From positions 74,978-138,977 of the forward strand of contig CANQPE010000001.1 in NCBI GenBank assembly GCA_947625645.1: a DNA stretch of 64,000 nucleotides. The letters run 5' to 3'. The notes beneath the pieces are model-generated. The model searched no databases. It was given only the letters and a program-made list of their open reading frames with translations, and was not told the origin of the DNA. Source of the stretch: an uncultured Clostridia bacterium. Its GTDB lineage: Bacteria > Bacillota > Clostridia > TANB77 > CAG-508. The translations under genes and the position numbers were made by a program. Positions 3,671-26,171 of the stretch are shown here, in pieces. Numbering within the stretch: the first letter of the stretch is position 1; each line of letters starts with the position of its first letter.

Positions 3671-5143
3671 CTATTTTCGTATAAACTGTGGTTGATAGTT
3701 TTCTCTAAATTTTATTACTTTTTCAAATGCATATGCCATATTTAAGATTTTTTCTTCTTCAAATTTATTTCCTATTAACTGCATTCCAATTGGCATCCCT
3801 TCTTTATCAACACCACAAGGAATAGAAATTGCAGGAAGACCAGCTATATTAACAGATACGGTACAAATATCTGCTAAATACATTTCTAATGGATTGTTAG
3901 ACTTTGATCCCATGTTAAATGCAACTGTTGGTGAGGTTGGTGTTAAAATAGCATCATATTTTTGAAAGCCTTTTTCAAATTCATTGGTTACTAATGTACG
4001 GACTTGTTGCGCCTTTTTGTAATAGGCATCATAATATCCTGAAGATAATACATAGGTTCCTAAGATAATTCGTCTTTTGACTTCTGCACCAAACCCTTCA
4101 CTTCTAGATTTTTTATATAAATCTTTTAAACTATGAAATTCCTTTGCCCTGTATCCATAACGAATTCCATCAAATCGACCTAAGTTAGAACTTGCTTCTG
4201 CACAAGCAATAATATAATAAGTAGCTAGTGCATATTGTGCCACATCTAAAGAAATTTCTTCAATTTCTGCTCCTAGCGATTTGTATGTTTCAATTGCTTT
4301 CTCCAAATTTTCCTTTACTTCTTGATTGATTCCTTCTCCAAAAAATTCTTTTGGTACTCCTATTTTTTTCCCTTTTATGTCATCTTTTAAATGCAACGTA
4401 TAATCTTTTTTCTCTTGTTTGACTGATGTGGTATCCTTTTCATCATGACCTGCAATTAAGTTTAATAAGATTGCGGCATCTTCTACATCTTTTGTAATTG
4501 GTCCTATTTGATCTAATGATGAAGCAAATGCAACCAGCCCATATCTAGAAACTACTCCATATGTTGGTTTTAATCCAACTACACCACAAAAGCTTGATGG
4601 TTGCCTAATAGATCCTCCTGTGTCGCTTCCTAACGCCCATGGTACCATATTGGCTGCCACTGCTGCTGCACTTCCTCCTGAGGAACCTCCTGGCACTTTG
4701 TTTAAATTCCATGGATTTGCCGTCTTTTTAAAATAAGAATATTCTGTTGAGCTTCCCATGGCAAATTCATCCATATTGAGTTTTCCCAATGATATGATGT
4801 TTTCTTCATTCAATTTTTCAACAACAGTAGCATTATATGGCGAAATAAAATTTTCCAACATACGAGAGCTACATGTTGTTTTAATCCCTTTTGTACACAT
4901 ATTGTCTTTTATTCCAATTGGAATTCCTGCATATTTGCCAAGTAGTTCTCCGTTTTCTTTTCTTTCATCAACTTGTTTTGCTTGCTCAAGAGCTTGCTTC
5001 TCTAATGTTGTAACAAATGCGTTTACATCACTTTCTTTTGCTTGTATTTGGTCAATATAACTTTGCGTGATTTGTGTAGCTGTTAACTCTTTATTTTGCA
5101 ACTTTTCCATTAATTCATGAACTGGTAATTGTGTAATTTCCAT
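3671..5143 (-). CDS. gatA: Asp-tRNA(Asn)/Glu-tRNA(Gln) amidotransferase subunit A
   Basis: 490 aa. Amidase signature [12 protein letters not shown] and [12 protein letters not shown]. Confidence 0.95.
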
Positions 5144-5155
5144 TTTCTTCTTTCA

Positions 5156-5181
5156 TCCTTTCTTAAGACAAACCTAGTTGG
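5156..5181 (-). repeat. conserved pre-SD leader box, copy upstream of gatA (CCAACTAGGTTTGTCTTAAGAAAGGA)
   Basis: Preceded by the hairpin ggttggaaaataatt/aattattttccaacc. A diverged member (GTCTT instead of GTGCC). Confidence 0.4.
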
Positions 5182-5209
5182 AAAATAATTGTAATTATTT
5201 TCCAACCTT

Positions 5210-5497
5210 TTAATTAATTACTTTTGGAATTTTAAACATATTTTGTTCTTGTTCTGGTGCATTTTGTAATAGTGCTTGATTATCTTCAAACACCTTAATT
5301 TCATCTTTTCTAAATACATTTTTAGACTCATTTGCTCCAATGGTAATGTCCAAATTTTCAACTGGTGCCTGATTGACAATATTGGCAAAATTCAAAATAT
5401 CTTGTAAATTTAATAAATACTTGTCTACTTCCGTTTCATTAATTTCTAAATTTGCTAAATTTGCTATATGCAAAATTTCCTCTTTGCTTACTTGCAT
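5210..5497 (-). CDS. gatC: Asp-tRNA(Asn)/Glu-tRNA(Gln) amidotransferase subunit C
   Basis: 95 aa, first gene of the gat operon. The size and the MQVSKEEILHIANLANLEI N-terminus are typical of GatC. Confidence 0.85.
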   Translation of the reverse strand: MQVSKEEILHIANLANLEINETEVDKYLLNLQDILNFANIVNQAPVENLDITIGANESKNVFRKDEIKVFEDNQALLQNAPEQEQNMFKIPKVIN

Positions 5498-5636: not shown

Positions 5637-5993
5637 TTATGGAATAGATTTGGGAAAAATCGTTTTATTTCTTACATAATCTTCTATTTTCTCTTGTTGC
5701 TTGGCGTTACTCGCATATATTTGTTTTAATTGTGTCTTTTGTGCTTCATCTTCACTCCAATATTCTAAATAAAGTGCTGCTATTAACGCTATCCCTTCTT
5801 TGGAAATCATCCCTTCCGTCATTGTTTGATTTGCTTCAAATTTAGGATGATAATGAATATCTCTATTTTTTTCTATTGTATGATACATTGAAGTAGGAAT
5901 CTTACGAATATACGTGTCTCCTAATGCATTGATAAACGCATAGGCTTCTGCATATGCTCTTGGAAAATTAGCGACATTTACCACGTTTTCCAC
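5637..5993 (-). CDS. hypothetical protein (118 aa, GTG start)
   Basis: ORF only, no recognisable motif. Downstream of the HD-domain gene in the same orientation. Confidence 0.45.
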   Translation of the reverse strand: MENVVNVANFPRAYAEAYAFINALGDTYIRKIPTSMYHTIEKNRDIHYHPKFEANQTMTEGMISKEGIALIAALYLEYWSEDEAQKTQLKQIYASNAKQQEKIEDYVRNKTIFPKSIP

Positions 5994-6074
5994 CGCTCCT
6001 TTCTCCCATCCTTGAATTGGAAAAATTGTTCATTGTAACATTGATACAACTAAATTTGCAATGGTGGTTTTCTT

Positions 6075-8066
6075 CTATCTTCCCTCATCACTTTTTAGTT
6101 TCTCAATATGCTGCTGAATTTGTTGGCTATTTTGTTTTTCTCTAATATTTTCTACCATACATTGAATATCTCGTGCATTTAATTGCCTTTTGGAAAGTTC
6201 TATGAGTGATGTTAATGCTACAGGTTGCCTTTCTATCTTTCTCGTTGCATTAATATCATCTCGAATGGCTATGACATGTTGAATTTGTGGAATCCTTCTT
6301 TCAGGGATTTGATTTTTTCCTCTTACAATTGTATTTCCCACATTTTCTTCATATAAAAATTCTAAAACATCATTTGCTAATACTTTGTATACTTCCTCTG
6401 GATTTTGTGGATTTTGCCATTTTTTATCTTCATTTGCAATTCTTTTTACATCTAAATCTGGTCTTTTTTCCTGTAATTGTTGAATTGCTTCTTTTCTGGA
6501 TACCACAAGCTTTCTTTCTAACAAGCCTGCATATAGTTCTTCTATTCCTTTATTGGTAAAAGAAGCTATAAATTCTGCAACTGCTTCCTGTGGCGTACAT
6601 AAAGGATGTGTCCCTTTTTGATACCTATCTCGAAATTCCTGTGGCATTTGCTCTATATTAGAATAGAAAAATTGAAATACGGTCTTTATTTCCCAAGCTT
6701 TATCAATCTTTCGATTCATATCATCTAAGGTTTCTTGCTTCTGTTTTCCGTCTTGATCTTGTGAAATTCTTAATAATTCTCCCTTAATAAATGCATCTTG
6801 ATATTTTGCTTTTGTCACCCATAACGTAACAAGCATAGGATCTATCTCATATTTTTCTTTTAGAAATTCACTATATGCTCTTGCTGTATCATTGACTTTC
6901 ATTTTCCTCTCTTGGTTTTCCATTGGCAATTTTTGTGCATCTCTCATTTTCTTAAATAATGCAATTCCTTGCATTTCTTCTACTGTTATTTCATGATTTT
7001 TTGGTATTTCACCTTTATTAACCGCTTTCTCAAAAAAGTCTATTCTTTCTTTTCTACCATCTAATTTGATTTCTCCTTCTTCTGTTATAAAACATCTTCT
7101 TGCTATTTCCGCTTGCATTTCTGCAATTTTTACATCTAATTGTCGAAATAAATTCATTTTTATTTTTTCTGGCATTTGATGTATCGTTCTTAATTTATAT
7201 TTTAATTCTTGCTTATGCTGTTTTCTTTTTTCCCTATATTGGGCTCTATCTTCTGGCAATGTTAACGATTCATACATTTGATTTTCTTTTTCTGTGAATT
7301 GTTCTTCATTGAGTCCCAGTAAAGCCTGCTCTTCTGGTGATAAATCATCTATTGTTAAAACATCTTGCTTTAATAAGTCTAAAAAATCTTGTGGAATATA
7401 TGCAATTTTATCTGCCAATCTCACTGCTTTTTGCTCAATTCCATCTGGTTCTTCCTTTACTCTGCTTGTACTATGTGCCAAAATTCCTGTCTTGATATAC
7501 TGAATTGCTTGTTCACTTAATCGATACCCATTATCTTCTGCAAATTTTTCTAACAATTTAGCTCCAATCATCGCACTTGTTTCATTATGCTCATAACACA
7601 TTGTTTCTGCCTTGGTATCTCCAGCATTGTCCGTATATTCTTTGCCAAACATTTTCACTCTATTTTGTTTGTATTCTGGTGTTGCTGAAAAACGCTCCAT
7701 TTCTTTTCCAAGAGCTCCTTCTCCATCGTGCCCAAAAGGTGTATGACCTAAATCATGCATATATCCCAATGCCCTTGCTAGAAGTCCAGAAACCTTAACT
7801 TCTATCTCACTTTTTCCATCTAATATTGCTTTTTGCATAGCAAGGTTTTCTGCTACAATTGCCACACCTTCTGAATGCAAGCCTCTTGTTGTCACATCAT
7901 TCACGATTTCATGATAGACTTGTGTATTAAAAAATATTTTTGCTAATTCCGGTGAAGTTCTTAGCATTTGATTAAAATTCTCACAAAATTGCAATTTTTC
8001 TTTCTCTGACAATTTTTTGCCATTGGTTGTTTCAACACCATCCCAAAAGTTTACTTTCTCACTCAT
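6075..8066 (-). CDS. HD-domain dNTP triphosphohydrolase (dGTPase)-like protein with a long C-terminal extension
   Basis: 663 aa. Motifs RGLHSEGVAIVAENLA, HDLGHTPFGHDGE and VRLADKIAYIPQDFLD match the dGTPase/Dgt family. The C-terminal roughly 400 aa are charged and coiled-coil-like. Confidence 0.7.
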   Translation of the reverse strand: MSEKVNFWDGVETTNGKKLSEKEKLQFCENFNQMLRTSPELAKIFFNTQVYHEIVNDVTTRGLHSEGVAIVAENLAMQKAILDGKSEIEVKVSGLLARALGYMHDLGHTPFGHDGEGALGKEMERFSATPEYKQNRVKMFGKEYTDNAGDTKAETMCYEHNETSAMIGAKLLEKFAEDNGYRLSEQAIQYIKTGILAHSTSRVKEEPDGIEQKAVRLADKIAYIPQDFLDLLKQDVLTIDDLSPEEQALLGLNEEQFTEKENQMYESLTLPEDRAQYREKRKQHKQELKYKLRTIHQMPEKIKMNLFRQLDVKIAEMQAEIARRCFITEEGEIKLDGRKERIDFFEKAVNKGEIPKNHEITVEEMQGIALFKKMRDAQKLPMENQERKMKVNDTARAYSEFLKEKYEIDPMLVTLWVTKAKYQDAFIKGELLRISQDQDGKQKQETLDDMNRKIDKAWEIKTVFQFFYSNIEQMPQEFRDRYQKGTHPLCTPQEAVAEFIASFTNKGIEELYAGLLERKLVVSRKEAIQQLQEKRPDLDVKRIANEDKKWQNPQNPEEVYKVLANDVLEFLYEENVGNTIVRGKNQIPERRIPQIQHVIAIRDDINATRKIERQPVALTSLIELSKRQLNARDIQCMVENIREKQNSQQIQQHIEKLKSDEGR

Positions 8067-17347: not shown

Positions 17348-18091
17348 TCATTTGGTTACCAAATGCTGTTCAAGGTCTTTTATTTGTAGATATATATCAA
17401 TTTCTTCTGTTTCATTTTTTAATATGTGAAGGATTTGTTTTTTGATTGCCATATGCACTGGCATTTTTAGAACACTCACACTACTAATGAGAGATTTTTT
17501 TCTGATTAACTCAATTGGTTGGTATCTAAGTAAGTCTACAAAGTTGTATGATAGATTGATATAATGATCTTGGAAACTTGTGTATCTAATGTTTGTATTG
17601 GTTTTGTTGCTCCAATTTTTTCTGCCTATGTAAATAACAATCGGCACAATAATAGGAGCCTGCTTATGATATGAACCCTTTGCTTTCCAATTTTTGATAA
17701 AATTCGTACATTCTGTTAAAATATGATATGCTATATGATAATTAGGGGATTTTTGAAGTTTGATAAAAAAATATACTTCCTTTTCTTTTATTTTATATAC
17801 CATCATTTTTTCATGACTAGGATATTCGCATTTTTGTATGCTATCCTTTGTAATTTCCCATGCAGATGTTTTAAAAAAATCATTGATAAAAATTGCAATT
17901 TCCTCTTTTCTTTCAATCAGTTTTTCGATAATTCTGTCTATTTTATCATCTTGTTCATTTTGTTCTTTTTGCATTTGTTTATCTTTTAGTATTTGTATTG
18001 CTTTATTTCTTTTGTTTTCTATCTGTAATGCTCTTTGTATTTTTTGGTTTTCCATACAGTCTAAATAATCATTGTATGTGAATATTAACAA
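17348..18091 (-). CDS. hypothetical protein, possibly Rpn/YhgA-like PD-(D/E)XK family (tentative)
   Basis: 247 aa. The segments VYFFIKLQKSPNYHIAYHILTE and APIIVPIVIYIGRKNW resemble the Rpn-family core pattern (hlEfQs...; PvIPIVlYhG..W). Confidence 0.35.
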   Translation of the reverse strand: MLIFTYNDYLDCMENQKIQRALQIENKRNKAIQILKDKQMQKEQNEQDDKIDRIIEKLIERKEEIAIFINDFFKTSAWEITKDSIQKCEYPSHEKMMVYKIKEKEVYFFIKLQKSPNYHIAYHILTECTNFIKNWKAKGSYHKQAPIIVPIVIYIGRKNWSNKTNTNIRYTSFQDHYINLSYNFVDLLRYQPIELIRKKSLISSVSVLKMPVHMAIKKQILHILKNETEEIDIYLQIKDLEQHLVTK

Positions 18092-20087: not shown

Positions 20088-20847
20088 CCACTCCCAACTC
20101 CTTCCATAATGTGTTAAAATATTGGCTAAATTTGGGACTTTCTCTGCAGTTTAATGGATTTCTTTCTTTGGTTTCAAACTCGATTTTGTGAATGTCTTTA
20201 ATCGTTGCCGGCCTTTTGCTTAGCACAAAAACGCGGTCTGACATACTAATTGCTTCTGATATATCATGCGTAACAATAAGTGCAGTGATATGTTCCTTTC
20301 GTAAAATATGGTATATATCTTCTGTTACCATAATTCTAGTTTGATAATCTAATGCAGAAAAGGCTTCATCTAAAAGTAAGATTTTAGGTTTTATGGCTAA
20401 GGTTCTAATCAAGGCCACTCTCTGCCTCATCCCACCTGATAATTCTTGTGGATATTTGTCCTTAAATTCATACAAGTGATATTTGTGGAGTAAACTTTCT
20501 ACATATGCTTTGCTTTCTTTTGTTCTTATCCCCTTTAATTCTAATCCTAACATAACATTGCTCCAAATGGTTCTCCATTCTAGTAAACAGTCTTTTTGTA
20601 ACATATATCCAATTTCTGGAGATATCCCTTCTACTTTTTTCTCTTGTATGTAGATTTCTCCCATTGTTTTTTCTTCTAACCCACTAATAATAGATAACAG
20701 TGTTGACTTTCCACATCCACTTGGTCCAATTAAGCTAACAAACTCTCCCTCTTTCATTCTAAAATTAATATTTTGTAATGCTTGTATTTCTCCCTTTGGC
20801 GTTTGATACGTTTTACTAATGTTTTTTACTTCTAATATTGGTTTCAT
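20074..20847 (-). CDS. ABC transporter ATP-binding protein (NitT/TauT family)
   Basis: 257 aa. Walker A GPSGCGKST, signature LSGGMRQRVA, Walker B ILLLDEAFSALD. Confidence 0.9.
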   Translation of the reverse strand: MKPILEVKNISKTYQTPKGEIQALQNINFRMKEGEFVSLIGPSGCGKSTLLSIISGLEEKTMGEIYIQEKKVEGISPEIGYMLQKDCLLEWRTIWSNVMLGLELKGIRTKESKAYVESLLHKYHLYEFKDKYPQELSGGMRQRVALIRTLAIKPKILLLDEAFSALDYQTRIMVTEDIYHILRKEHITALIVTHDISEAISMSDRVFVLSKRPATIKDIHKIEFETKERNPLNCRESPKFSQYFNTLWKELGVDENK

Positions 20848-20906
20848 ACATACCTCCTTTTTTGGGTTTACTATATTTTATGTTACCTTATTTCATTGCG
20901 TGACAC

Positions 20907-20938
20907 GGGAACAAATAGGGACGGTTCCTTTTTGTGCC
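20907..20938. repeat. single-arm copy of the GGGACGGTTC-type repeat
   Basis: gggaacaaatagggacggttcctttttgtgcc closely matches the left arm of the 10985-11067 palindrome. Confidence 0.6.
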
Positions 20939-20953
20939 ATATACATACAAATT

Positions 20954-20989
20954 AAAGACGCTAGAAAATAATAATTTTCTAACGTCTTT
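20954..20989 (-). terminator. hairpin terminator of the three-gene cassette
   Basis: aaagacgctagaaaat / attttctaacgtcttt: 16-bp stem with 1 mismatch and a 4-nt loop, 18 nt past the SecB-like stop. Confidence 0.6.
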
Positions 20990-21006
20990 TGCTTAAATAT
21001 ACAATA

Positions 21007-21402
21007 TTAGTTGTCCTCGTCAAATAATTTGTTAACATTAATTGGCGGTAATATCAGAGCATTTACATTAGCACTTGCTGTATATGTAGACACTATCGCT
21101 CTTATATATGGATATAAAATAGCAATTGCATTTGGTTCAAGATTAAGTTTACTTTCATTTTCTACTGCAAAAAATCCTGTTATTTGAACATTCATTTCAA
21201 ATGGATAATTATTTTCTTCAGCATGCTCAAAAATTTTTGTTTCTATGGTAACCTCCATTTTATCTTCTATTTTCTTTACACTCTTAGATACGGAAAAATT
21301 TACTTTTGTTCTCTGGTCTAAGTCACAATTTTTGTTTCTTATAAACTCCACTTTGTCTACTATATATTTTTCAAATATTAATACACTTTTCAAATTCTCC
21401 AT
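21007..21402 (-). CDS. SecB-like chaperone
   Basis: 131 aa from the ATG at 21402 (GGAGG 9 nt upstream). LIFEKYIVDKVEFI..., FEMNVQITGFFAV and NAIAILYPYIRAIVSTYTASANVNALILPPINVNKLF parallel E. coli SecB FQIQRIYTKDISFE..., CEVQQAGIFSI and [36 protein letters not shown]. Confidence 0.7.
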   Translation of the reverse strand: MENLKSVLIFEKYIVDKVEFIRNKNCDLDQRTKVNFSVSKSVKKIEDKMEVTIETKIFEHAEENNYPFEMNVQITGFFAVENESKLNLEPNAIAILYPYIRAIVSTYTASANVNALILPPINVNKLFDEDN

Positions 21403-21403
21403 A

Positions 21404-21661
21404 TTAAGCTGCCTCCAATAAATCAATTTCGTTATTTTTCTTAAATAACATTTGCACTTTTTTTATAAAATTTTTTGTTTCTATTTTATGTACCCACATG
21501 TTATTAAAATCCTCTCCAATATAATAACATTCACTATCATATTCATCTATTATTAGTCCATTGTCTAATAATTCTTCTAATAATTCTTCTGATGAAATAT
21601 TTTTTAATAAATCGTCCACTGTTTTTTCAAACTCATCTATATTGAAATCAAATATATCCAT
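21404..21661 (-). CDS. small acidic protein, candidate antitoxin
   Basis: 85 aa, rich in D/E in the first 55 residues with a K-rich, more hydrophobic tail. Lies 13 nt after the upstream gene. Its stop is 1 nt before the SecB-like ATG. Confidence 0.55.
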   Translation of the reverse strand: MDIFDFNIDEFEKTVDDLLKNISSEELLEELLDNGLIIDEYDSECYYIGEDFNNMWVHKIETKNFIKKVQMLFKKNNEIDLLEAA

Positions 21662-21674
21662 AACATTTATCCCC

Positions 21675-22265
21675 CTATTTATAAAAATATACTATGCTCT
21701 CAAATATCTCTTTACTTATATCTACTTTTTCTTTATTTTCTAAAATTATGCTTTTATCTTTAACACAAAACATTTTCCTAGGGTAGTTTTTGAATGCATC
21801 AAATGTTTTTGTATTTATTTGTTCTATAAAAGTTTTTGCTATCATCTTTTTAGTGATTAAATTTCTTTTATACATCATATTTATAATCGCTGCTGTTTTA
21901 TTCTTAGCTCTTATATATTCAGGTTTAGTTATTAGTTTTCCTTTAATTTTTTCTACTAAAAGCTCAAATTTGTACAATTTATCTTTTTCATCTAAATCTA
22001 ATATGTCCTCTTGTTTTACTTTTATAGTGCTTTGTATTATTGTATATTTGCTTATTAAGAGTTCCCACTTTGGCAAATAGGAAAAAATTTTTATAAATTT
22101 TTTTATGTTCCAATCTATTGCGTCATCACACAAGTAAAAAAAATAAATTCCGGAACCTAAAAATAAATTATTATCTTTGTCTTCATTTACAATAAAATTA
22201 TTTTCACATATTGATTTTACCAGTTCTTTCTTTGTACCATGATAACCTATTATTTCTTCATCCAT
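21675..22265 (-). CDS. ART-fold-like protein (DUF3990/PARP-like signature), candidate toxin
   Basis: 196 aa. IGYHGT at residues 6-11 and LGSGIYFFY...DAIDW about 25 aa later follow the H-Y-E ADP-ribosyltransferase pattern (HG[ST] ... GxG[IF]YF ... A..W). AAGGAG RBS. Confidence 0.55.
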   Translation of the reverse strand: MDEEIIGYHGTKKELVKSICENNFIVNEDKDNNLFLGSGIYFFYLCDDAIDWNIKKFIKIFSYLPKWELLISKYTIIQSTIKVKQEDILDLDEKDKLYKFELLVEKIKGKLITKPEYIRAKNKTAAIINMMYKRNLITKKMIAKTFIEQINTKTFDAFKNYPRKMFCVKDKSIILENKEKVDISKEIFESIVYFYK

Positions 22266-22317
22266 TTTTACTCCTTATGTTTTTATTTGTATTATTAATT
22301 AAAATTTTTACATTGTT

Positions 22318-22346
22318 ATTATATCATGAGATTAACATAATGTCAA
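22318..22346 (-). promoter_or_regulatory. consensus sigma-A promoter of the three-gene cassette
   Basis: Minus strand reads TTGACA (22346-22341)-17 nt-TATAAT (22323-22318), about 50 nt upstream of the ATG at 22265. Confidence 0.7.
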
Positions 22347-22412
22347 TGCTCTGTGTACTCTTTATTTTATATACTTTTTATATTTTTTTGTCAATACCTA
22401 TATATCTCTATT

Positions 22413-23550
22413 CTAAAACAGAATTTGTTCTAAGGTTTGTAAAAGATATTCTACTTCTGGCATGGTGTTGAAATCTCCAAAGGTAACTCTTAAGGCTCCT
22501 TTGGCTAATTCTGGTGGGACACCTATTGCTGATAATACGTGTGACGGTGCACTGTCTCCTGAGGAACAAGCAGACCCGCCTGAAGCACAAATTCCTTCCG
22601 CATCTAATTTTAACAGTAGTTCTCCTGAGTCTATGTTAGGAAAACATACATTGCAGTTTCCTGGTAGCCTTTGTTCTAAACTGCCATTGATACGACATTC
22701 AGGAAACTTTTGCTGTACTTGTTCTAAAAAGAAGTCTCTCATTTCTTTTAATTTGCGAATATAGCCTTCTATGTCTTCTTCTGCTAATTGGCAAGCTTTT
22801 CCCAATGCTACAATTTGTGCTACATTTTCGGTTCCGGCTCTCTTGTCTTTTTCTTGATGTCCTCCATCTAAAAATTTATATAGTTCAATCCCTTCTCTAA
22901 TATATAATGCACCTATTCCTTTTGGGGCATATAATTTATGGCCAGATAATGATAACATGTCAATTCCCATTTGTTTGACATCTATTGGCACATTCCCGAA
23001 CCGCTTGCACAGCATCTGTATGGAATGTAATTCCTCTTGCTTTTGCTATTTTAGCAATTTCTTGGATAGGTTCTATGGTTCCAATTTCATTGTTGGCAAA
23101 CATGACACTAATTAAAAATGTTTTGTCTGAAATATGATTCATAAGGGATTCTAAATTAACAAATCCTTGTGCATCAACGTCTAAGTAAGTAACTTCAAAG
23201 CCTTGCTTTTCTAGGCTATGACAAGAGTTTAAAATGGCTGGATGTTCAATACATGATGTAATGATATGGTTTTTCCCAGTTTGCTTCTCTTTTTGTAAAA
23301 AAGCCATTCCTTTTAAAGCCATGTTATCACTTTCTGAGCCACAACTTGTAAATACGATTTCTTGTGGTTTACAATGTAATAAACTTGCCACTCTTTCTCT
23401 TGCTTGTTCTATTGCCTTTTTGGCTCTTCTGCCTAAGCCATATACAGATGAAGGATTTCCATACTCTAAACTCAAATAAGGAAACATTTCTTCTAATACC
23501 GCTTCTTTCACTCTTGTTGTCGCACTATTGTCAAAATATTTTATATTCAT
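22413..23550 (-). pseudogene. nifS: NifS/IscS-type cysteine desulfurase, frame-broken (+1) at 22996-22998
   Basis: Track ORFs 22960..23550 (N-terminal part, ...HTDAVQAV) and 22413..23015 (C-terminal part, GNVPIDV...SLSGHK PLP-lysine motif). The span is 3n+1 long. The junction lies in GCG GTT C GGG AAT GTG. Confidence 0.85.
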
Positions 23551-23583: not shown

Positions 23584-24430
23584 TTATAAAATAGACTGAA
23601 TTTGATCCATATTTTCCATGGCACATCGATATCCTGCACGATAGCACTTTTCTAATTTTTCGATATCAAGTAATCCTGTACCATCTGAATCTACTGTTAA
23701 CACAAAATCGCTCTCATGAATGCTTTCTTCTGATATTTTATTTCCCATAATATCTATGGTACGCATTGCAATATCCATAAAGTTGCTATTTTCATCAATA
23801 TTGTCCGCCTTAAAATTAACACAAATCACTTTTTCAGTTCCCTGTTTTTTTAATTCTTGAACAGGAATATTATCCAAAATGCCTCCATCTAAAAATTTAT
23901 GTCCTTGAAAATCGCAAGGGCAAAAAACACCTGGGAAACTACTACTTGCCCTAACTGCTGTTCCTACAGATATTTCTGAAATATATCGCTTATCTAGTTT
24001 TTTACAATTGGTGAAAATATATTTTTCTGAACGATTGACATCCACCGTTGGTATAACAATTGGTTTTTGAATTTGTGCTACTTTGTGTACACCTTTTTTT
24101 AAGGCTGCCATATTGTAAGCTTCTTCAATCCCTTTTCCAGAATTAAATCCACAAACTTGGAACTTTCTATTTGTCATAAAATTCCCGAATGGTATTGATA
24201 ATGGGTGAAGTGTCTACACTTAAAATTTCTTTTGCATAACGTTTAAAAAGAATATAAATATAATAAGGAGAATAGCCCAAAGCGTATAGTGTTGCCACCA
24301 TACTCCCTGAGCTTGCTCCCCCTATGATATCTACTTGTATTTGTTTTTCTTCTAATGCTTTTAGCACACCGGCATGTGCAATTCCACGGATTCCTCCGCC
24401 AGCTAGTGCAATTCCCAAATGCAATATCAT
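23584..24430 (-). pseudogene. patatin-like phospholipase, frame-broken (+1) near 24185-24187
   Basis: N-terminal part from the ATG at 24430 has GGGIRG and GASSG (GxSxG). The C-terminal part (23584..24177) has DGGILDN. The span is 3n+1 long. The two frames overlap in a window of about 45 nt. Confidence 0.8.
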
Positions 24431-24437
24431 ACGCCTC

Positions 24438-26171
24438 CTATTTTGTATAATATATTTGCCCAGAACCATATTGCACTTGGTGATATTCACTAATGAATTC
24501 TGGTTCTGACTGTGAAGTAACATTACTTTCGCTTGGCTCAAGACCGATTGTCCCATCTTGTTTTATCATACCCCATTTTCCATCTTTTAAAACACCTGCA
24601 AATCCATACTGATTAAATTCTGTTACTGCATCATAAATTGGTTCTACAACGATATTGCCGGCTTTATCTGCATATCCCCATTTTCCATCTTTTGTCATGG
24701 CAAATAGTGTATTATTGACCAAAATCTCTTGGTTGGTCACTGTTGCACCTTCTGGCGTAATATATGTCTTATTTTTTCCATCTGTTACACAAATATAGGT
24801 TTCTTCTTGTGTCATGGTTCCATTTTCCATTTGAAGAATCACTTCTCCTGCTTCATTTGCTATTTCTAATGTATTATTTATCATTCTTTGTATTAAGTTT
24901 GTGTTTGGTATGACTTGAATCGATGTATATTTAAACTCTGATTTTGAATTTCCCTGTATGTCAACAATTCCTAAGTTTTCTCCCGCTTTTGATGCTATGA
25001 ATAAATCTTTTGTTAAATAGGCTAAGTATTGATAACTTTCTTCTGAAACAGGCTGCTCATTTTTACAAATTTGATACGTTGTGCCTTCTTCTGTTGCTTG
25101 AATGCGTATTGTATATTCTTGCTTTTCTGGTATGGTAACAATGGTTATTTCAGGAGAAATGTTCGTTAATTTTCCTTCGGCATCATAAACTTCTGTCTTT
25201 TCTCCTTTTTGTGCATATAAGTATTTCCCTTTTACATCTAATTGTTCAAATTGGCAATCTATGATTTGTTTGCCTTCTCGATTCATGACGCCATATTGTT
25301 TTCCTTGTTGTACTATAAAAATAGCATGGCTACTGTCATAATGAATTGACTGATATTCATTTGGGATGAGTTGTTTCTCGTTATGGAACACACCATATCT
25401 TCCATTTTCAGCAACTAATAAATACACGTCTTTTCGCTCTCCTGAATCTGGTATACGTTGCATATCATTGTATATGGTTTGCAAATACTCTTTTCCAGTA
25501 TAATCCACATATCCATAGCGATAACCATTATCTGTTTTGTTAGCAACAATATACCCATCATAGCGATAGTTTTCGTCTTCTTCAAAAAAAGCATCTGCTT
25601 GGATTTTGTCATATTGACTTTCTACCAATGGATAGCCTTTTAAATTGATGACACCGTATTTTCCGTCTTGTTTTACTAATAATTCTCCTTCTTTGTATTG
25701 TAGTGTATCTATCTCTTCATAAATTGGATCTGTAATGACATCTCCTTCTAATGTAAGAAGTCCATATTTTCCACCTTTTTCATATTTTAAAATCGATTTT
25801 TCATATACTAGGTCACTTGCCACATTTTTTAATTGTAATGCATCTATGGCATCATATGTAGTATAAAGTTGTTCTCCAGATGCATTTAACACCATACTTT
25901 TTCCTTCTGTTTGGCATACAAAAATAGGTTTTGATGGGTTTGGTATTTTTACCATTGTATATTCTGTTGGTATTTTTATATTTCCTTGTGTATCCATAAC
26001 GCCAAATTTTTGGTCGTCTGTTGCTTTCAATACAAAATATTGATAATTTGTAACACTTTCAATTTCATAGTCTCTATCTTGTTCTTGCTTTTGCTGAAAA
26101 ACAAAATAAATTCCTATGGCGATTATTACCAAAACAATAGAGATACCCACTATTATACTTCTTTTTTTCAT
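24438..26171 (-). CDS. WG/KWG-repeat-containing membrane-anchored protein
   Basis: 577 aa from the ATG at 26171. N-terminal TM helix. Many repeats of the type [30 protein letters not shown] and [11 protein letters not shown]. Confidence 0.75.

Follow-up and report, generated by a model that had tools for sequence, protein, structure and literature searches.

The three genes considered here lie on the minus strand of a 64,000-nt stretch of DNA from an uncultured Clostridia bacterium (GenBank assembly accession number GCA_947625645.1; contig CANQPE010000001.1, coordinates 74,978 to 138,977), referred to below as the window, and they form a cassette that is, in all likelihood, a divergent Clostridia-type relative of the CmdTAC (PD-T4-9) toxin-antitoxin-chaperone (TAC) anti-phage system. 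Gene 1 (window coordinates 21675..22265) encodes a predicted CmdT-like ADP-ribosyltransferase (ART) toxin of 196 amino acids (aa) with an isoelectric point (pI) of 9.05, gene 2 (21404..21661) a putative CmdA-like antitoxin of 85 aa, and gene 3 (21007..21402) a CmdC-like SecB-type chaperone of 131 aa. All three open reading frames (ORFs) are intact, with a Shine-Dalgarno sequence upstream of each. The genes are separated by gaps of 13 nt (genes 1 and 2) and 1 nt (genes 2 and 3), in agreement with an original prediction made from the nucleotide sequence, which had described three tightly packed minus-strand genes and had proposed a TAC module composed of an ART toxin, a strongly acidic antitoxin and a SecB-like chaperone in that order. 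The module was upheld by the chaperone match and the family-wide synteny described below, and the acidity of gene 2 by its pI of 4.1. The original prediction had also held that this toxin class was undescribed for TAC systems, which is outdated, as a TAC system with an ART toxin was discovered in E. coli as PD-T4-9 by Vassallo et al. 2022 (PMC9519451) and later renamed CmdTAC (10.1101/2024.02.24.581848), its mechanism being reported by Vassallo, Doering & Laub 2024 (PMC11618068; preprint 10.1101/2024.02.24.581848).

The start of gene 3 was set at the ATG that follows GGAGG; the longest ORF would begin at a TTG at 21426, and the ATG was chosen over it because homologues begin MENLKS or MEKYKS. 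The gene 3 product scored 44.8 bits against the Pfam SecB family, above the cut-off of 26, which bears out the earlier description of it as SecB-like. Its best match in any library was PADLOC PD-T4-9_C (E 1.3e-18, 65.5 bits; 4e-6 with a second PD-T4-9_C model), and on this model gene 3 outscores E. coli CmdC (65.5 vs 46.8 bits). The closest sequence match in the PDB was H. influenzae SecB (1fx3/1ozb). When genes 1-3 were compared with E. coli CmdT/A/C using BLASTP, the sole match was a weak one to the C-terminus of gene 3 (E 1e-4). The ratio of nonsynonymous to synonymous substitutions (dN/dS) was 0.12-0.32 for gene 3, indicating purifying selection. These sequence matches place gene 3 among the SecB-like chaperones of TAC systems, as one of the CmdC type. 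It is extremely improbable that it is instead a housekeeping SecB export chaperone with unrelated neighbours: though the Pfam SecB threshold is passed, and RefSeq calls E. coli CmdC 'protein-export chaperone SecB', gene 3 fails all NCBIfam housekeeping SecB equivalogs (17-43 bits vs cut-offs of 103-277, the best being 43.2 bits vs 102.8 for TIGR00809), and this explanation was rejected on these failed cut-offs, the best match to PD-T4-9_C and the strict three-gene synteny found across the family.

The product of gene 1 includes the H-G-T...G-x-G-I-Y-F...A..W pattern on which the original prediction of an ART-like fold was founded, and residues H9, G10, T11, G37, G39, Y41, F42 and A49 were invariant across 27 relatives. 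An AlphaFold2 model built from the alignment of these 27 relatives (predicted local distance difference test score, pLDDT, 91.5; predicted template modelling score, pTM, 0.86) was compared with the PDB using Foldseek, and the best matches were the RES toxins 8gug and 8qnl, diphtheria toxin, Tpt1/KptA, PARP13 and PARP1 (probability 0.9-0.99, template modelling score 0.4-0.56, E about 3e-3). The best viral structural matches, in BFVD, were ART-PolyVal-type proteins (down to E 2.5e-5). The modelled structure of gene 1 thus has the ADP-ribosyltransferase fold seen in diphtheria toxin and PARPs (H-Y-E type), and the early fold assignment stands. H9 and Y41 were invariant in 127/127 family representatives and align with the His and Tyr of the E. 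coli CmdT clade. Replacement of Y41 in CmdT by Ala abolishes defence (PMC11618068). The YHGT...GxGVYF segment of the gene 1 family profile also lines up with the PARP10 and PARP13 motifs that hold the His and the Tyr, and Pfam gave a weak, sub-threshold PARP match over residues 4-42 of gene 1.

Gene 2 was found between the toxin and the chaperone in every relative examined. The C-terminal half of its product is rich in aromatic residues (YY, W-V-H-K and F) and ends in ...DLLEAA, where E. coli CmdA ends in ...ELDLAA. A terminal Ala-Ala is present in 48/63 of the intermediate ORFs across the superfamily, and in CmdA it constitutes a ClpXP degron required for CmdTA toxicity (PMC11618068; 10.1101/2024.02.24.581848). 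A single-sequence AlphaFold2 model of gene 2, of low confidence (pLDDT 68), has helices at residues 8-21 and 24-33, followed by strand-prone aromatic segments and a floppy end. The predicted second helix includes an EELLEELL repeat, encoded at 21564-21587 by two identical 12-nt units in tandem (TCTAATAATTCT on the plus strand). In dN/dS comparisons, the antitoxin evolves faster than the toxin and the chaperone. Gene 2 looks like CmdA in its size, position, predicted N-terminal helices and terminal Ala-Ala.

To examine the arrangement of the three genes, 77 distinct CmdT-like genes were taken from loci in metagenomes, genomes and IMG/VR, and in 71 of them the downstream DNA was long enough for a judgement. 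A SecB-like gene was present within 700 nt downstream in 67/71 (94%), and an intermediate ORF of 64-151 aa (median 88 aa) was present in 63 of these 67 loci, so that the three families are neighbours across many genomes. Four IMG/VR loci (L064, L066/L067, L074 and L088) had >2 kb of downstream DNA and no SecB-like gene within 700 nt. One of these toxins is H-Y-E and three are H-Y-V, and the loci may represent two-gene variants that lack a chaperone, or systems with another arrangement. In other loci (L118:1864-3365; L058/L059:3001-4209; L063; L068/L071), the toxin ORF is longer (232-343 aa) and the SecB-like gene begins 3-133 nt after it, leaving no space for a separate antitoxin of at least 45 aa; these systems may have a very short antitoxin or one fused to the toxin.

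For comparison, a reference E. coli locus was found by blasting a published cloning primer against E. coli genomes; this locus (L022) lies in a P2-like prophage and matched the PADLOC PD-T4-9 A, B and C models at 4e-97, 3e-38 and 7e-61. The window cassette resembles the CmdTAC of E. coli ECOR22 and O112ab:H26 in its toxin-antitoxin-chaperone order, tight spacing and total span of about 1.2 kb. The proteins of 196/85/131 aa compare with 192/77/129 aa in E. coli, and the gaps of 13 and 1 nt with 9 and 2 nt in L022. Further shared features are an ART-fold toxin with the NAD-site His and Tyr (Y41), an acidic antitoxin that ends in Ala-Ala after an aromatic tail and has two N-terminal helices (predicted here by the low-confidence model), a SecB-like chaperone matching PD-T4-9_C, and carriage of the E. 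coli systems and of relatives of the window cassette as prophage cargo. The window cassette differs in that its toxin has no significant pairwise similarity to E. coli CmdT and is missed by PD-T4-9_A, in the residues at two conserved toxin positions (Met for an invariant Gln at the third active-site column and Phe for the Trp of the WLxxG motif), in its host, a low-GC anaerobic Firmicute, and in its location outside a prophage.

Several results weigh against a CmdTAC assignment. Gene 1 had no significant BLASTP match to E. coli CmdT, and when its clade was compared by hhalign with the lone E. coli CmdT sequence, the probability was 2%. The PADLOC PD-T4-9_A models miss gene 1 even at E <= 10, though the toxin of E. 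coli matches PD-T4-9_A at 4e-97; CmdTAC systems are called from CmdT and CmdC hidden Markov model (HMM) matches within two genes (PMC11618068), and the PADLOC toxin models used here do not recognise gene 1. Gene 2 gave no PADLOC PD-T4-9_B match and no Pfam or NCBIfam match above threshold, its model shows, at low confidence, strands rather than disorder in the C-terminal half, and hhalign matched its family to that of CmdA weakly and over the helices only (E 9e-4, probability 23%). Gene 1 has Met165, in the motif RKMFCV, in the column of the invariant Gln of CmdT, thus the published H-Y-[E,D,Q] triad does not hold at that position. Finally, no recognisable prophage surrounds the cassette in the window, where it is flanked by core genes.

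For the toxin, the pairwise results are offset by profile comparisons. Against an alignment of 46 gamma-proteobacterial CmdT sequences, the gene 1 clade gave an hhalign probability of 95.1% (E 3e-8), and the wider gene 1 family 98.9% (E 1e-17, 168 columns). Taken with the pairwise comparisons, these results indicate that the homology of gene 1 to CmdT, as read from sequence profiles, is real but remote. A word-index search with the wide gene 1 family alignment failed to retrieve E. coli CmdT. For the antitoxin, the weak profile match is in line with the remark of the authors that CmdA is highly variable (PMC11618068).

The family to which gene 1 belongs is large, and its immediate clade is small. 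A search of 1.84 billion representatives with the clade profile, made with no word index, returned 1166 proteins at E <= 1e-3, of which 190 reached E <= 1e-10; the best 150 of the 1166 were mostly full-length matches of about 170-240 aa. The close clade comprises 46 proteins of at least 53% identity, none of which has a name, and GTDB representative genomes scanned with this clade yielded 2 loci only. No match to gene 1 was found by tblastn in 50,697 GenBank phages or by a sequence search of the PDB, and the family profile found no solved CmdT structure. PADLOC PD-T4-9_A matched 68/127 sampled family members (best E 7e-12). Several CmdT-like toxins, among them those of L012 (Fibrobacter), L005 and L058 (H-Y-Q), are missed by both PD-T4-9_A models (PDLC04068/04069), and their chaperones match PD-T4-9_C strongly (E 1e-15 to 7e-29). 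Counts of CmdTAC made from toxin and chaperone HMM matches are therefore likely to be underestimates.

These data also bear on whether the cassette is a new kind of TAC system, with a toxin class never before linked to SecB-like chaperones. Gene 1 had no above-threshold match in PADLOC, Pfam or NCBIfam, and its database relatives are all annotated 'hypothetical protein', which speaks for a new class. However, CmdTAC is already a TAC system with an ART toxin (PMC11618068; 10.1101/2024.02.24.581848), gene 3 matches PD-T4-9_C, and gene 1 is joined to CmdT by profile-profile comparison and by the 68 PD-T4-9_A-matching intermediates. The proposal is thus very hard to credit, and it was rejected on the PD-T4-9_C match, the PD-T4-9_A intermediates, the hhalign match to CmdT and the published work.

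The active site of gene 1 leaves more room for a difference in function. In E. coli-type CmdT, the Gln is invariant (46/46) and stands two positions N-terminal to a conserved Cys (motif RQQMCV). By sequence alignment, gene 1 would be H-Y-M at the triad positions, the third position being assigned by alignment alone, and an acidic residue, D170, lies three residues past the conserved Cys. Among the 127 family representatives, the third-position column is occupied by Q in 79, E in 9 and a hydrophobic residue (V/I/M/Y/F) in 39, and the hydrophobic variants keep the partner antitoxin and chaperone (Met 9/9, Ile 9/9). Eukaryotic PARPs with H-Y-I/L and Tpt1/KptA with H-H-V are active without an acidic third residue, and their chemistry differs from that of H-Y-E enzymes. 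Given this precedent, Met165 need not imply inactivity. PARP10 (H-Y-I), like gene 1, is hydrophobic at the third triad position; the likeness of PARP10 and the PARP13 ART-like domain to the gene 1 family lies in the aligned His and Tyr motifs and is limited to the N-terminal NAD-binding half (E about 0.04-0.1), and these PARPs are eukaryotic, multidomain proteins that modify proteins.

It is therefore conceivable, if rather unlikely, that the architecture is CmdTAC-like while the H-Y-M toxin differs from E. coli CmdT in chemistry or target; such a toxin might modify DNA, structured RNA or protein, deplete nicotinamide adenine dinucleotide (NAD+), or be catalytically weakened. The replacement of the invariant Gln, the hydrophobic column in 39/127 representatives, the retention of partners by the Met and Ile variants, the precedent of the PARPs and Tpt1/KptA, and the top Foldseek matches to RES-type NAD+-consuming toxins (8gug and 8qnl) all favour a difference in chemistry, which the assignment of the third position from alignment tempers. 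An inactive toxin is opposed by the invariance of H9 and Y41 and by purifying selection on gene 1 (dN/dS 0.15-0.24), which argues against decay, and the basic character of gene 1, which fits nucleic-acid binding as proposed for CmdT, also counts against this reading. Similarly, with about the same low likelihood, the H-Y-M/V/I branch, which makes up about one third of the sampled family, could be a distinct effector subclass. Its members may retain the same chaperone-based phage sensor and have an ART that differs in mechanism or target from adenine-N6 mRNA ADP-ribosylation. Several H-Y-M/V/I members, including the window toxin, escape the current PD-T4-9_A models.

Most relatives sit at prophage ends. 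Those of the window's clade directly follow holin/endolysin genes, with the prophage integrase or the contig end on their other side; in L018, for example, the cassette separates endolysin from integrase. IMG/VR viral contigs carry seven of the relatives. The pairing of a CmdT-like gene with a downstream SecB-like gene was also seen in the Streptococcus satellite phages Javan245, Javan248 and Javan16 and in a faecal 'Bacteriophage sp.' (GenBank accession numbers MK448382.1, coordinates 4969-5442 and 5976-6191; MK448383.1; MK448341.1; MT837118.1), where the genes are unannotated or labelled hypothetical; CmdTAC-like systems therefore also ride on phage satellites of Gram-positives.

The position of the window cassette, a solitary low-GC insertion among core genes, could instead be that of a plain addiction or stabilisation toxin-antitoxin module that is kept because its loss kills the cell and that has no role in phage defence. 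The nearest relatives (79% identity; L014-L017) likewise adjoin non-phage genes, and chaperone-dependent toxin-antitoxin systems were initially described without a defence role. However, most relatives occupy the prophage accessory slot flanked by lysis genes and the integrase, or are on viral contigs, which is typical of superinfection-exclusion cargo, and the two E. coli CmdTAC systems that have been tested both protect against phage (PMC11618068; 10.1101/2024.02.24.581848). A simple addiction module is thus improbable.

For the favoured assignment, as a divergent relative of CmdTAC, operon anatomy and homology were established here, and each dynamic step of the mechanism is drawn by analogy from E. 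coli CmdTAC. In uninfected cells, the toxin, antitoxin and chaperone would form a complex of about 1:1:4, with the chaperone as a tetramer that binds the antitoxin by its C-terminal aromatic tail and keeps the Ala-Ala degron covered. On infection, a newly made phage structural protein, the trigger in CmdTAC being a phage capsid protein, would compete for and titrate the chaperone, and the freed antitoxin would be degraded by ClpXP. The released ART toxin would then use NAD+ to ADP-ribosylate single-stranded RNA (mRNA), so that translation would stop and the infection abort.

The tripartite toxin-antitoxin-chaperone layout is found in other TAC systems, namely M. tuberculosis HigB1-HigA1-SecB(TA) (Rv1955-1957), E. 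coli HigBAC and MqsRAC, in which a SecB-like chaperone also guards the antitoxin via a C-terminal chaperone-addiction tail. The toxins of these systems are RNases (HigB, MqsR) and not ART enzymes, and E. coli HigA is without an Ala-Ala degron and is ClpXP-independent (10.1101/2024.02.24.581848). DarTG is, like the system proposed here, an anti-phage toxin-antitoxin system with an ART-fold toxin that modifies a nucleic acid (by analogy in the present case). However, DarT acts on single-stranded DNA, the DarTG antitoxin is a macrodomain by which the modification is removed, and there is no chaperone; no PADLOC DarT model matches gene 1.

Upstream of gene 1, a putative sigma-70-type promoter (TTGACA-17 nt-TATAAT, with an extended TG before the -10 box) was found on the minus strand at 22346..22318. 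It matches the consensus at 12/12 positions, as originally reported, and was the sole perfect site in a 2-kb scan (20700-22700). The hairpin that had been noted as closing the cassette (20989..20954, minus strand; 16-bp stem, 4-nt loop) was recovered as a terminator-like structure with a folding energy of -24.2 kcal/mol (z = -6.2 vs shuffles, 0/200 of which fold as well), and its T-tail, AATTTGTATG, is weak. The G+C content is 0.23-0.25 across the cassette vs 0.31-0.39 in the flanks. A search for insertion scars found no direct repeats flanking the cassette, no tRNA genes and no Rfam matches. No relative with an empty site was found, the sole other contig with the same ATP-binding cassette (ABC) ATPase carrying the cassette too.

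Downstream of the cassette is an NMT1-type ABC transporter operon, and upstream is a class-V aminotransferase (NifS-like) gene in two frames (22413..23015 and 22960..23550), followed by a split patatin-like gene (23584..24177 and 24167..24556). The original prediction had placed the cassette between an ABC operon and a frame-broken nifS; the position was correct, and a reading of the break as a pseudogene is doubtful, as it may be a sequencing artefact. The 9-mer TTCGGGAAT has only two copies in the window, at 22992-23000 and 24181-24189 (minus strand), where ~0.23 would be expected by chance, and the two frame breaks coincide with these copies. Removal of one base repairs the NifS reading frame. 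The breaks look like a motif-linked sequencing or assembly indel, or programmed events, rather than two independent pseudogenes. The one mobile-element gene observed in the vicinity encodes a YhgA-like transposase (Pfam Transposase_31, E 2.8e-8; 17348-18091, minus strand); it lies just past the ABC transporter operon, ~3 kb away from the cassette. The window at large is a stretch of core chromosome from a low-GC anaerobe, with genes for GatB, AspRS, SMC, DnaG, AdhE and pyruvate formate-lyase.

The cassette opens no new class of system, and what is new is modest: a Clostridia-type branch, a toxin that escapes current defence models, and a Met at the third active-site position. The change from Gln to Met is common to many relatives that keep their partners, and it raises the question of whether a polar residue is needed for RNA ADP-ribosylation or whether these toxins have another activity. 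As only the chaperone is recognised by the models, the distribution of the family is probably under-counted, and the reach of CmdTAC-type systems includes gut Clostridia and the prophages of these bacteria, in a version that HMM-based annotation of defence genes overlooks.

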